Positions 3,805-59,574 of a stretch of 64,000 nucleotides of DNA are shown piece after piece. Position 1 is the first letter of the stretch; each line of letters opens with the position of its first letter. Under the pieces are notes generated by a model. The model searched no databases. It worked only from the letters and a program-made list of their open reading frames with translations, and was not told the origin of the DNA. The position numbers and the translations under genes are program-made. The stretch is from Eledone cirrhosa (Eukaryota), in NCBI GenBank assembly GCA_964016885.1, contig OZ024740.1, positions 315,332,001-315,396,000 on the forward strand. The letters run 5' to 3'.

Positions 3805-3960
3805 GTTATTCCGGGTTGAATCGGAGGTAACCACAGTAAGTAAGGTAATCAATACATAGCAGAGTATAAAAGTTTTAATATAGATGAGATTCTACAGGAC
3901 TAGAACTGTTTCATTCTAAAGAATGAAACAGTTCTAGTCCTGTATAATCTCATCTATATA
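3805..3960. mobile_element. Fold-back PLE 3'-end remnant, family A
   Basis: About 40-bp inverted arms 3878-3960 centred near 3918 plus a one-sided extension; related sequence at 12761-12940, 32860-33005 and 42205-42240. Confidence 0.65.
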
Positions 3961-4160
3961 TATATATATAAATTACAGAATAATCGATTATTCTGTAATT
4001 TATATTCGGGCATGTAAAACATCTGATGTATTTACATTGAGCTATTTTTCTTATTGGTAATAAGGTGGTAATGAATTACTGATCTTTCCTGTTTATAATT
4101 ATATATAGTGTATATATAAGTATAAATAATATTATTATATATATATATATATATATATAT

Positions 4161-4869
4161 GTTGTAGCTCTGGTTCATCTGAATCATTGAGCGCTTGCCA
4201 CACATCTCGGAAGTTGTTTTTCGTTAATTCCTAAGCCGAAATACGATTCTCGCTAATTTATATTTGTATTAATCTCCAGAGTCTAGCTATTGACCAGTTA
4301 ATTTTCTTGATTTTTTTAGTTGATTCTATTGACTGATGAATGGCTTATGTTAACTTATAACCATTCTGTTGAGAGCTTAATTCGTTTTGTAATGTTTTGC
4401 ATGCTTGCAATAATATACACATACTGAATTCATCCGCCTAAAATAAGGGTTGCCTCCCTGCCGAGCCCCACGTGGGGTCGGTAACGGTCATTCCTTAAAT
4501 TAGCACTCGAACTAAAACCTGTTGAAAAAGTGGCTTCTTTGTTCAATCATCTTACTAGAAGCCTAACATTATTTGTGTAAGCGGACAGTACTTGATTTAG
4601 GAGTCGCAGAAACCCAAATGCTGGATTTTACCAACCATCCAGGGGTCCGGGTAAATTTTCAATCACATATATTTTTATTTGTATGACCCGAATTACTTGG
4701 TCGTTTTTATGGTTGTGCGGATGATTGCTTAACCATCGTCTCAGTGTGTTTGGCCTTTAACGTATGTTGTAGCTCTGGTTCATCTGAATCATTGAGCGCT
4801 TGCCACACATCTCGGAAGTTGGTTTTCGTTAATTCCTAAGCCGAAATACGATTCTCGGTAATTTATATT
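4161..4869. mobile_element. About 710-bp element with about 105-bp direct terminal repeats, in (TA)n
   Basis: 4161-4265 is nearly identical to 4766-4869; both flanks are (TA)n; no ORF. Confidence 0.6.
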
Positions 4870-5848
4870 TATATATATATATATATATATATATATATAT
4901 ATATATATATATATATATATATATATGTATATATATATATATATATATATACATATATATATATATATAATCACACTCTACTATCCGAAGTATCGAGTAC
5001 TAATAATGGTCTTACTAGATTAAATCAGGTAAAATCCTCTCTCTTTCTCTCTCTCTCTTTATCTCTCTCTCTCTCTCTCTATATATATATATATATATAT
5101 ATATATGTGTGTGTGTGTGTGTGTGTGTGTGTGTGTGTGTGTGTGTGTGTGTGTGTGTGTGTGTGTGTGTGTGTGTGTGTGTGTGTGTGTGTGTGTGTGT
5201 GTGTGTGTGTGTGTGTGTGTGTGTGTGTGTGTGTGTGTGTGTGTGTGTGTGTGTATAGAGACAGAGAGAGAGAAAAAGAGCGAGATAGATGGATAGATTA
5301 GATTAGATGTGTGTATGTGTATAGTTCTGTCTGTAAACTTAGGTGAGTGTGTGTGTGTTGGTAAGTCGCTCTTTATTAATACTTTAAGTTTATCAATGGA
5401 TTCTCAGTAAGAGATGATGCCCCGTTATTGGAATGAATCAGAAATTATCAATGTGTTTACTGATAGATTATATTCCTAGAACCTCTATGTAATAAAAGGT
5501 TAGAAAACACCAGAAATTCCAGATCTCGGCGTAAAACTTTTGCTTTACAGCCTAGCACTGCAATAACACTGAATCTGAATGTGAATCTGTACTCAAGATT
5601 ACACACCTGTTTGTTGAAGATAGGCGTCTTTGCCACAAAATACATTAACATCTAAAAGGCAGCTGATATTGACAATAACGTGTGAATTTTGTTTCCTGAG
5701 TCGGGGAGACAATGCCTGGTCTATTGCATTTTCATTAGGTGAAAATGTTTGTTAAAATTTCACCAATAGTCCTTATTTGAATAATGTGGGAACATTCCAT
5801 TACAATGGTGTCTTTTGTATTTCCGTTTATGCACAGACATTGTATATA

Positions 5849-6048
5849 CGAGAGTTGGCTGAAAGGTCATAGTCTGACTATGAAGGAGTGATGCCAGAGC
5901 TGTGAAATCTTGCATGCATTAATTTTAACTCTTCTTATTAATAATTGCATTGCTTTTTTTTTCGGGGACTATATTAAAAAGATAAACCTCATTTAGTCAT
6001 TCCATGGGAGTATCTTGATGAGTCTATGAACTTTTCAGCCGACCCTCA
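5849..6048. mobile_element. Tc1/mariner-type MITE
   Basis: TIRs cgagagttggctgaaaggtcatag / ctatgaacttttcagccgaccctca, with TA on both sides. Confidence 0.75.
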
Positions 6049-6597
6049 TATTTTGCTTGTGTCTCTATTTCTCATTTTAATTTTTCTTTCCTTGTTCGCT
6101 GTAAAACTAGCTTTACTATTCAGTGTCAGTAGCTATAGTACATTTTCTATCTCTGCTTCATATACATTACATATTACAAATACCTACACGGGGTGCTCAA
6201 ATGCCTGAAAGAAATCTTAGTTCAGGTTTAACGCTCACACACTCTCTCTCTCTCTCTCTCTCTCTCTCTCTCTCTCTCTCTCTCTCTCTCTCTCTCTCTC
6301 TCTCTCTCTCTTATAACAACGCGTCCCTTCGCCATTTCTTTTTGTGAGCTTCAGCGAATATATGCCCGTCTGTATGCATGTATATAAAAATGTATGTATA
6401 TCTGTATGCATGTATATATAAATATATGCATGCCTGTATGCAATATATATATATATGTGTGTGTGTGTGTCTGTCTGTATGTATATATATATATATATAT
6501 ATATATATATACATCTGTCTGTATGCATGTATATATAATTATATATATATATATATATATATATATATATATATATATATATATATATATATATATA

Positions 6598-6786
6598 ATT
6601 GTTTCTACTTTTGGCACAAGGCCAGCAATTATTCCAGTGCATTACTGGTACTTTATTTTATCGACCCCGTAAGGATGAAAGGCAAAGTTAACCTCGGCGG
6701 GATTTGAACTCAGATCATAAAGGGAGGTAACTCTATGCTTCAAAGCATGGCGTCCGACCCTTACCGATACTGCCAATCCACCGCCC
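6598..6786 (-). mobile_element. tRNA-derived SINE (main family)
   Basis: Full-length match to the 11276 and 34886 copies. Confidence 0.9.
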
Positions 6787-57374: not shown

Positions 57375-57600
57375 GTGTAAAAGTAAATAGAAATAACTAC
57401 ACAATCGGTACAGTATATGGAAGGAATATATTAGGCTAACGCTTGAAATAGCAGGAAGAGGGCCTTAACATTTCGGACGCTAGTCCTTCATCAGAAGAAA
57501 GAATAAGAAATTAGAAAGATTGAAGGGACAGGCGAGGCGGAATCGGAAAAAAATGTTTGTAGAGAAAAATAACGGGTCCATTCATGTTGCCATCTCTCTC
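57375..57600 (-). mobile_element. PLE family C 3' end, with hammerhead at 57464-57497
   Basis: ctt CTGATGA a ggactagcgtcc GAAA tgtt aag on minus; homologous to 25590-25815. Confidence 0.75.
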
Positions 57601-58605
57601 TATGTGTGTGTGTTAGCCTGCATGTAAATATATCTATAAATCAATTTATATTGTAATAAACTGGTATTTAGTCAGCCTTCTATGTGTGGTGTTTGTTTTT
57701 CATATACACATCATACCAACAAAAAGATTTCTTTTTCTGTTGCACGATCCAGCATTTTAAAATGGTACTCGCAATTACATCGTGCGAAACCATTTTACTG
57801 GTTTAAGAGCTGATGAGGGCGAAGATGTGTGTGTGTGTGTGTGTGTGTGTGTGTGTGTGTGTGTGTGTGTGTGTGTGTGTGTGTGTGTGAACTTATCTTG
57901 TACATCGCTTTTCTTTGTTTCCCTCTTTCAGTCAACTGTATGTGCCAGTGCACTGCTCTCTGTCCTCCTCCTGTTTCAATCTTTTCTATATTTCATCTGC
58001 CTGTCACCCACCTCATGGATTGTCACTCTCTTGACCACTGGCCGCTGGTCTCTGTCCTCTGAAGCATTTTTGCCCATCACTGTCTTTGACAACATTTGGC
58101 TGTATTAAATGCTGATTTAGCAATGAGTTTTCTCATTTTTTATGTATATATATATGTATGTGTGTGTGTGTGTGTGTGTGTGTGTGTGTGTGTGTGTGTG
58201 TGTGTGTGTGTGTGTGTGTGTGTGTGTGTGTGTGTGTGTGTGTGTGTGTATGTATATATATATAAATATATATATAATATATATTTGTGAAATGGGTGGT
58301 GGTTGAAATTCAGTTGTGCACGGTTAAATGGTAGTAGACGTGCTCGGACGGACATGAAAATGTACACACCTATGTAAAAAGTGCCAAGGAAGCAAATCTC
58401 TAACTTGAAAAATGTGGTCCCTAGGGCCCCCAAACGGTCTATTTACTATCGCTTCCGGTGAGTTATTTCCCCCTGTTCTAATACTTGGATGAGTTATTTT
58501 CCGTAGTCGCTTTCAATATTCATTGTCTTATTTACAATTTCATACACATTTTTAAACTCATCAATTTTTTCATAACATATCAAACACAACGTTCTTTCGC
58601 TGTTT

Positions 58606-59334
58606 TTGAAAAATATTATTGAAAGTTTATTATAAAGAAGCAGTTTCAGGAAAAAAAATAGAAATATGCACTTGGGGCTGGACGGCGTACAATGAGAAGT
58701 GGAGCGACGTGAAAAGCGTTGTTTATTAACAGCGAAATATCAATGTCGATGATATGCAAGTTTGAAAATACAGATTATGAAGGTTTGTATGATAGTTTAC
58801 ACTTTGATAGCCCTGGTCAGCAAGAGGGACCTCTATATATTAGACGTTTATTAGAAGAGGGGGAAATAACTAACCCCAGTATTAGAACAGGGGGTTCGCA
58901 ATGTAAGGGTTTTATTTCTTTTGTTAGAAAACAGTGACCTTTTTCGGTTTGGCATTTCGTAAAATTCTACTGCAGAATCGATTTCATAAAACGGTACTGT
59001 ATGATCGTTATAGAAGTATTTAAATTTAATATAGAGCAACTGTAATTGAAAAATGAAAATGAAACGTACTGTAGAAGGCAACAGTTTATTAACAGCGGAA
59101 TATATAGAGGCCCCTCTTGCTGACCAGGGCAATCAAAGTGTAAACTATCATACAAACCTTCATAATCTGCATTTTCAAACTTGCATATCATTGACATTGA
59201 TATTTCGCTGTTAATAAACAACGCTTTTCACGTCGCTCCACTTCTCATTGTACGCCGTCCAGCCCCAAGTGCATATTTCTATTTTTTTTCATGAAACTGC
59301 TTCTTTATAATAAACATTCAATAATATTTTTCAA
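58606..59334. repeat. About 235-bp inverted repeat with about 260-bp spacer
   Basis: 58606-58840 is the reverse complement of 59100-59334. Confidence 0.9.
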
Positions 59335-59338
59335 ATTA

Positions 59339-59386
59339 TCTACTTAATAAAAAGTGGCCCCGGGTGCAACCGGGATCAGCTGCTAG
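59339..59386 (+). mobile_element. 48-bp Helitron-like mini element
   Basis: A|TCtacttaataaaa...cccgg-gtgcaa-ccggg...CTAG|T. Confidence 0.55.
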
Positions 59387-59399
59387 TTATATATATATT

Positions 59400-59574
59400 A
59401 GGGATTGTAACGTCCAGTTACTATTGGTTCAGCAGAGTGACCACTCGATGCGTAGTTTCCAGTAGGTATATCGGTGTAGTACTAAACAGAGTGTAATACT
59501 AATAATAAAAAAACGAAGTGTTAGATCTTCATTACGTAATGAAGACTTAACACTTCGTCCTTTTTATTATTAGT
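59400..59574. mobile_element. Fold-back remnant with one-sided tail
   Basis: Inverted arms 59497-59574 centred on TACGTA; (TA)n flanks. Confidence 0.55.

Follow-up and report, generated by a model that had tools for sequence, protein, structure and literature searches.

Penelope-like elements (PLEs) that encode an endonuclease insert as units with an adjacent inverted, 5′-truncated pseudo-long terminal repeat (pLTR) and an optional tail (PMC8557442, PMC3846280, PMC2377424). The way in which tandem and inverted PLE ends form is there called undefined (PMC8557442). Metazoan PLEs also contain minimal type I hammerhead ribozymes, which occur as dispersed solo motifs and as opposite-strand pairs 100-700 bp apart (PMC4209133). 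For the anole PLE Poseidon, in vitro work describes cutting and extension of both target strands, two internal reverse transcriptase (RT) initiation sites that bound the tail, AT-rich targets and uncut RNA as the main substrate (PMC11167929). The non-long-terminal-repeat (non-LTR) retrozymes are short, PLE-derived, carry type I hammerheads and form head-to-tail tandem arrays (bioRxiv 10.64898/2026.07.22.740005). Here we describe a 64-kb stretch of the 3.0-Gb, microsatellite-rich genome of Eledone cirrhosa (assembly GCA_964016885.1, contig OZ024740.1, positions 315,332,001 to 315,396,000), called the window throughout, with six small inserts that appear from their sequence to be PLE insertions. 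Together with related copies elsewhere in the genome they yield a map of the points at which the two arms of such fold-backs turn. The peak of these turning points tracks a promoter-like site whose distance from the hammerhead core varies by family.

The inserts, which fall into families designated here by letters, share with the published PLE units their head-to-head arms, a tail on one arm, TA-microsatellite targets, junctions with microhomology and a TATA box with a TCACT initiator-like motif. They differ from those units in number and size (about 10^5 copies, by extrapolation, of 80-300 bp), in tails of 55-100 nt compared with 30-40 nt, and in that turning points are here mapped and cluster at the start-like site. 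The fixed short-arm ends match the two RT initiation sites bounding the tail in Poseidon, and the template likewise appears to be uncut; however, the elements here look Neptune/Nematis-like, and inverted arms are left unexplained in the available text of that work (PMC11167929). Solo motifs, opposite-strand pairs and a palindromic short stem III are held in common with the metazoan minimal hammerheads as described (PMC4209133), from which family A departs by a 4-bp stem III with an 8-nt loop, and families D and E by a 60-nt stem II. The retrozymes are similar in being short PLE-derived sequences with type I hammerheads, but each of the six inserts is a lone head-to-head unit with an independent junction, unlike the head-to-tail tandems that retrozymes form (bioRxiv 10.64898/2026.07.22.740005), and a retrozyme identity was rejected. 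Architecture, solo hammerheads and opposite-strand hammerhead pairs are already in print; in the literature outside subscription papers and supplements, either of which might contain such a map, we found no publication that places the inversion points of PLEs relative to start sites or ribozymes.

A first-pass annotation, made from the letters of the window, had described six small palindromes in (TA)n, and self-BLAST of the window bore out five of them: 3883-3954 (arm identity 94%), 12758-12883 (87%), 20996-21149 (92%), 25132-25225 (84%) and 59499-59573 (89%). The sixth, 9165-9440, is instead a 38-nt inverted repeat (9166-9203/9340-9377) around a 136-nt spacer and forms no hairpin. (TA)n or (TG)n adjoins at least one side of each of the six. 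All consist of two head-to-head arms, one stopping at an inner site and the other running 55-100 nt beyond it (the 'tail'). Junctions are given below relative to each family's predicted hammerhead cut, with 0 as the first base past it. The family A fold-back at 3803-3958 (minus strand; tailed arm 3803-3916, tail-less arm 3921-3958) turns at 3916 (-24/-24) and the family B fold-back at 20995-21243 (plus; tail 21155-21243) turns at 21082 (-34/-15); both junctions are in stem II, where the annotation had placed them. It was also right that the next insert turns beside CTGATGA: in this family A fold-back (12760-12941, plus) the tail-less arm reaches a start-site-like wall at -47 and the tailed arm re-enters at -36, giving a junction at about 12825, just 5′ of the core. 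A complete type I hammerhead motif occupies the tail-less arm at 12774-12823 on the minus strand (CTGATGA from 12817, predicted cut between 12780 and 12779). In the family C fold-back (9166-9437, plus) the tail-less arm (9166-9340) ends just 5′ of the core (9332, minus) and the tailed arm re-enters at +111, so that the junction at 9340 is -41/+111. The family D fold-back (25132-25304, plus), whose parent has a long-stem-II hammerhead motif, turns at 25180 (-1/+4), and the family E fold-back (59400-59574, minus) turns at 59535 (+14/+14), on a short palindrome 14 nt 3′ of the predicted cut. The ACGTA at these last two turns had been taken for the stem III/GUA site; it lies instead 3′ of the predicted cut, in the 3′ strand of stem I in D and 14 nt past the cut in E. 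Both parents do carry a CYGANGA...GAAAC-type motif upstream of ACGTA, as the annotation's reading had called for.

Two further copies belong to the same families. A family A copy with a remnant inverted arm lies at 32857-33008 (plus; turn at about -45, core CTGATGA at 32881), and a second family B fold-back at 33782-34055 (plus) keeps a whole hammerhead (core 33957). The annotation had cited this hammerhead as intact; its motif is indeed complete, but it sits inside a fold-back that turns at 33877 (-127/+44), 127 nt upstream of its own cut and near the start-site-like wall, and so is a counter-example to the ribozyme as turning point. One short-read contig, from a run possibly made on the assembled sample, spans the 25180 junction (25126-25268, 0 differences), and this palindrome is therefore not a long-read artefact; another run, X1, gave no record over 25126-25310, which speaks neither for nor against the junction. 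None of the short-read contigs listed bridged the 12825 junction, and 6 of the 8 short-read contig joints listed start at 12820-12823, the family A wall. In an Rfam scan the stretch 3875-3964 matched MIR7994 at 47.6 bits, under its cut-off, and such palindromes are prone to misannotation as miniature inverted-repeat transposable elements (MITEs) or microRNA (miRNA) hairpins.

Fold-backs were sampled from 160 evenly spaced 10-kb stretches (contigs C1-C11, C13 and C15), 120 search loci and four longer family A loci. The 534 anchors were aligned to real reference copies by two-arm split alignment, then de-duplicated and filtered, leaving 162 fold-backs after the removal of 12 that had a weak arm, low-complexity flanks or over 25 inserted bases. 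The evenly spaced sample and the non-focal copies in search flanks form the 'unbiased' set. The family A search set (24 fold-backs) was excluded from positional tests because the query itself contained the modal junction. Fifty-four fold-backs were found in the 1.6 Mb of the evenly spaced sample, which extrapolates to about 10^5 scars genome-wide for eight families only. These frequencies are lower bounds, since long C and F insertions with junctions beyond the reference were counted as non-inverted. Loci per Mb, in the first 1 Mb sampled, were about 22 for A, 30 for B, 33 for C, 7 for D and 4 for E.

The annotation's claim that the centres are not random held insofar as turning points are distributed non-uniformly. 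The furthest-5′ points pile up at a wall: their densest 11-nt window lies +3, 0, +3, +5 and -9 nt from a start-like site in families A, B, D, E and I (21/29, 18/45, 11/21, 5/16 and 2/3 of the points, respectively). Measured from the core, the same windows lie at -3, -83, -32, -20 and -73, and from the cut at -42 to -130. The start-like sites themselves stand at about -45 (A), -126/-137 (B), -114 (D), -104 (E) and -115 (I). Expectations were obtained from a null in which both ends took uniformly distributed positions from the wall to the short-arm end, for the 59 unbiased events of families A, B, D, E and I outside the window. The furthest point was within 10 nt of the start-like site in 33/59 cases (22.3 expected, p = 0.0015), and 8/108 fold-backs passed more than 10 nt upstream of it. 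A TATA-like box precedes TCA(+1) by 30-31 nt in references A1, A2, B2, I1 and E2 (background 4.4%). In the window, a family I pLTR with upstream sequence (33377-33612, plus) has TATAAATA at 33414 and TCACT, with +1 at 33445, 31 nt later (core 33509). References D1 and D2 have AGACGT at +28, the motif given for the Penelope downstream promoter element (DPE; PMC2377424), and rotifer PLE pLTRs are described with TATA and TCACT (PMC3846280). The wall would then correspond to the transcription start. Families B and I also keep a GGGTA(C/T)GTCA-like motif about 30-45 nt past the start-like site, possibly a splice donor, as in the 5′ intron of Penelope.

The two arms of a fold-back differ in length by at least 25 nt in 159/162 cases, with outer ends fixed per family (median short-arm ends: A +27, B +57, D +54, E +49.5, F +51, I +56); these 159 have the inverted 5′-truncated pLTR with a tail on one arm that is known from PLE insertions. 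The tail-less arm reaches further 5′ in 82/137 fold-backs and the tailed arm in 33/137, and both end within 3 nt of each other in 22/137. The further arm traverses an intact cut site in 126/137. Subfamily-diagnostic sites agree between arms in A (24/24, 15.0 expected), B (14/14, 7.0 expected) and D (8/8, 4.3 expected), and weaker diagnostic sites in 17/20, 15/21, 8/8 and 10/11 cases; the arms therefore come from one source. Junction strings are nearly all distinct (A 28/29, B 45/45, C 17/17, D 21/21, E 16/16), so each junction is an independent event and there has been no amplification as units. The annotation's 'non-autonomous PLE products' are thus non-autonomous as dead-end truncations and not as multiplying elements, and its attribution of the palindromes to PLEs and to by-products of retrotransposition is supported.

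These observations, namely fixed and differing outer ends, a shared 5′ wall, arms of one subfamily, intact cut sites and independent junctions, are probably best explained by truncated head-to-head PLE insertions formed through twin priming on uncut RNA, run-off at the likely transcription start and end-joining. Each strand of a TA-rich target would prime one complementary DNA (cDNA), the two beginning at different fixed positions inside the RNA. Synthesis of both would continue across the hammerhead, still uncut, toward the probable start of the RNA 45-140 nt upstream of the predicted cut; having run off the 5′ end of this uncleaved RNA, the two cDNAs would be joined at their ends. Both arms would accordingly be first-strand cDNAs, presumably linked through end-joining that used 0-4 nt of microhomology. 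The simplest account is that two strands were primed, because a lone tail-less cDNA snapping back could not template the tailed arm. With the start on one side of the hammerhead and the priming sites on the other, short products have their turn in it or close by although it does not define them, and stem II and short palindromes may occasionally serve as ordinary microhomology. In the twin priming that produces 5′ inversions of L1, a single RNA is copied into two cDNAs, one from each target strand, and these are joined at microhomology; the place at which the second primer anneals, upstream of the first cDNA, varies, and the arms have no overlap. In the fold-backs, by contrast, neither site varies and one and the same sequence is present in both arms, which gives a palindrome.

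The annotation had attributed the turns to the ribozyme itself, with hammerhead cleavage or hairpins halting reverse transcription and thereby fixing the symmetry axis. In its favour, two junctions of the window fall in stem II and a further one at the predicted cut, and stem II junctions recur elsewhere (-24 for family A in loci L150 and L246, -34/-15 for family B in locus L092). The hammerheads are moreover credible: in family A, 94.3% of the cells of its 13 pairs are paired, and three pairs, all in stem I, are altered on both sides (25 of 38 matches aligned). Nonetheless we consider this explanation very unlikely, and already largely refuted. Either end fell within 5 nt of the predicted cut in 2/59 unbiased events versus 12.5 expected, and most further arms run straight through the cut site, which suggests that the template RNA is mostly uncut there. 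In the evenly spaced sample alone, 1/37 fold-backs turn at the cut and 18/37 at the start-like site. The axis lay within 20 nt of the hammerhead in 42/59 unbiased events, not above the 49.2 expected, so that the part of the annotation's claim that tied the centres to the hammerhead was not supported. In families B and I, which have a wall remote from the core, the figure was 14/46 against 30 expected, with 19/46 search-derived. Among 70 tight fold-backs the axis fell on a perfect parent stem of at least 4 bp in 10, against 13.6% under the null, and hairpins were not enriched at the axis. Family G, despite a minimal hammerhead, gave no fold-back in 23 copies; its copies in the window (25593-25812, plus; 57378-57597, minus) serve as a negative control. 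With arms of 20-80 nt, 72-100% of the possible turns in families A, B, D, E, F and I are within 20 nt of the hammerhead, because it ends 27-57 nt before the short-arm end; choosing tiny palindromes therefore yields the near-hammerhead pattern by geometry. In family A the ribozyme and start-site readings coincide, since the wall is only 6-8 nt from the core.

A different proposal is self-priming on one template, in which either a cDNA folds back or an antisense RNA uses its own 3′ end as primer, and the endonuclease trims the tail off one arm. Antisense-RNA self-priming was put forward for rotifer PLEs, whose head-to-head geometry and small junction palindromes were read in this way (PMC3846280). 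The concordant arms and the microhomology excess at gap-free junctions fit it equally well, and the 33/137 fold-backs with the loop on the tailed arm suit cDNA snap-back. However, the loop is more often on the tail-less arm, which is impossible from a single sense-templated cDNA; joins within 3 nt leave no loop, axes are not enriched on parent hairpins, and the promoter motifs have the spacing expected if a sense transcript began at the wall, which an antisense 3′ end would not need. We consider such an origin unlikely. That a few palindromic MITE-like or short interspersed nuclear element (SINE)-like elements were amplified as whole units would account for the very high copy numbers, and the modal family A junction does recur in the search set (19 distinct strings in 24). 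It is nevertheless highly improbable: junction strings are near-unique, later mutation contributing to this, junction coordinates differ too, the arms are asymmetric, and the same build occurs in kilobase copies bearing an open reading frame (ORF). A MITE with a fixed palindromic consensus and equal terminal inverted repeats was rejected as a candidate for the same asymmetry and near-uniqueness. Finally, (TA)n is prone to breaks, and a dinucleotide repeat adjoins 128/161 outer flanks tested, as would be expected of DNA-level hairpin repair in (TA)n; neither this nor assembly artefacts, to which together we give hardly any credence, would produce family-specific fixed arm ends and walls or a median arm identity of 94%, and one junction is bridged by a short-read contig and family G is never folded back.

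Several points weigh against twin priming with run-off at a transcription start. The start-like sites were recognised only after the junction clusters were known, B1 and B3 carry an initiator-like motif alone, no start site could be assigned in C or F, whose junctions are spread out, and family E is at the wall in 0/4 unbiased and 5/12 search-derived cases; for these reasons, and because the assignment draws on motif spacing, the start site is something we infer. The null is silent on the wall itself, because the simulation was bounded at it, and the search-derived sets (B, D, E) favour junctions that lie upstream of the query. The 25180 junction coincides with the predicted cut. No ORF was found upstream of family A in the four of four longer copies examined, and the link of A, B, D, E and I to PLEs is made by architecture and tail motif, no contiguous ORF having been found. 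The short arm is best matched to its own partner in 34/110 fold-backs and is above the median other copy in 97/110, which is not decisive. Microhomology of at least 2 nt occurs at 35/81 gap-free junctions versus 15.8% under the null, but at 35/162 (21.6%) overall, and the split-finder favours overlaps, which affects these counts.

The tie to PLE proteins comes from families C and F. A long family C insertion of the same architecture spans 16557-20836, with a tail-less arm at 16557-19449 (minus), a tailed arm at 19450-20836 (plus) and hammerheads at 16762 (minus) and 20577 (plus). Its 823-aa open frame (17014-19485, minus) has RT and C-terminal GIY-YIG matches (RVT_1 E 1.7e-4, GIY-YIG E 3.8e-4, both under the curated Pfam cut-offs) and, by eye, a CxxC linker motif upstream of GIY-YIG, the criterion for Neptune/Nematis being CX2-5CxxC; the element looks Neptune/Nematis-like. 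A long family F insertion (13085-16220) has inverted arms, hammerheads at 13276 (minus) and 16127 (plus), and an endonuclease-like frame at 14670-15536 (minus). All six inserts are likely to be PLE insertions. The tail motif GAGT(A/G)C(C/T), 14-54 nt past the short-arm end, is common to families A, B, D, E, F and I, and is a candidate protein-binding site. A third long inverted PLE insertion at 21283-25081 (arms 21426-22574 and 23936-25081) has a GIY-YIG match, and a pattern scan found no canonical CTGANGA...GAAA motif in it.

The pattern scan found 18 CTGANGA...GAAA motifs in the window. The type I core (CUGANGA, GAAA, NUH) is present in the A, B, C, F, G and I references, and the parents of D and E have a core, a 60-nt stem II, GAAAC, a 4-nt palindromic loop and GUA/GUC, with core variants CTGAGGA or CCGTCGA in D and CTGACGA, CCGACGA or decayed forms in E. 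Copies were chosen by core patterns, so that core invariance in the alignments is by construction. The 60-nt stem II of D and E is multi-bulged (L035:1727-1827, L073:1642-1740 and 19 more matches); 8/16 of its pairs are compensatory, mostly as one D-versus-E event (17 of 21 matches aligned). As motifs, then, the hammerheads are credible. The Rfam scan of the window showed no hammerhead among the 150 of 254 matches listed, which were microsatellite-driven miRNA matches, and minimum free energy folding of single hammerheads was uninformative (z-scores -0.7 to -1.5; five inputs, one a microsatellite stretch). One D subfamily is widespread despite its degenerate core CCGTCGA. Family G shows a 5′ cluster near -122 to -137 and no inverted arms, and may represent another PLE clade with one priming site. 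Family H (33635-33740, 63879-63974) has a ribozyme-like end that is atypical or decayed: CTGA(C/T)GA is present, but the 45 nt after it contain no GAAA.

The junction population would record how integration is constrained in vivo: priming takes place at two fixed sites, the ribozyme is traversed uncut, and synthesis runs off at a site resembling a promoter. The many hammerheads that occur alone or in opposite-strand pairs in animal genomes could have arisen in this way. A bolder reading, which we offer tentatively and with more doubt than confidence, is that some 100,000 frozen PLE integration intermediates are preserved here, made by symmetric twin priming, with the hammerhead as a negative switch and the scars as double-stranded RNA for editing. 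If so, turning points would reveal PLE transcription starts at near-base resolution, cut RNA would not be integrated, and read-through scars would supply ready-made double-stranded RNA. Octopus is described as having high double-stranded RNA potential and hyper-editing, and a lizard Penelope as heavily edited (PMC5625713); a role of the scars in RNA editing is put forward as a hypothesis only.

Other repeats are abundant in the window. On the minus strand, 26328-31664 contains the frames of a non-LTR retrotransposon (ORF1-like, endonuclease-like and RT-like, by eye). A 185-nt SINE-like repeat, at 143 loci per Mb, lies at 1357-1543, 6598-6786, 11276-11462, 32537-32725, 34894-35076, 45950-46082 and 59628-59769, and presumably resembles octopus SINEs. 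Inverted repeats of 237 nt (97% identical) surround 257 nt at 58605-59335; they did not match the PLE families and are possibly a DNA transposon. The region 53270-55940 is a mosaic of inverted and direct copies of 319-568 nt, 96-98% identical, split by (TA)n/(ATAC)n. Satellites occupy 35076-39855 (51-bp unit, 94 copies) and 49010-50662 (75-bp unit, 22 copies), and further inverted repeats outside the named families lie at 6854-7079, 9944-10047 and 3971-4000.

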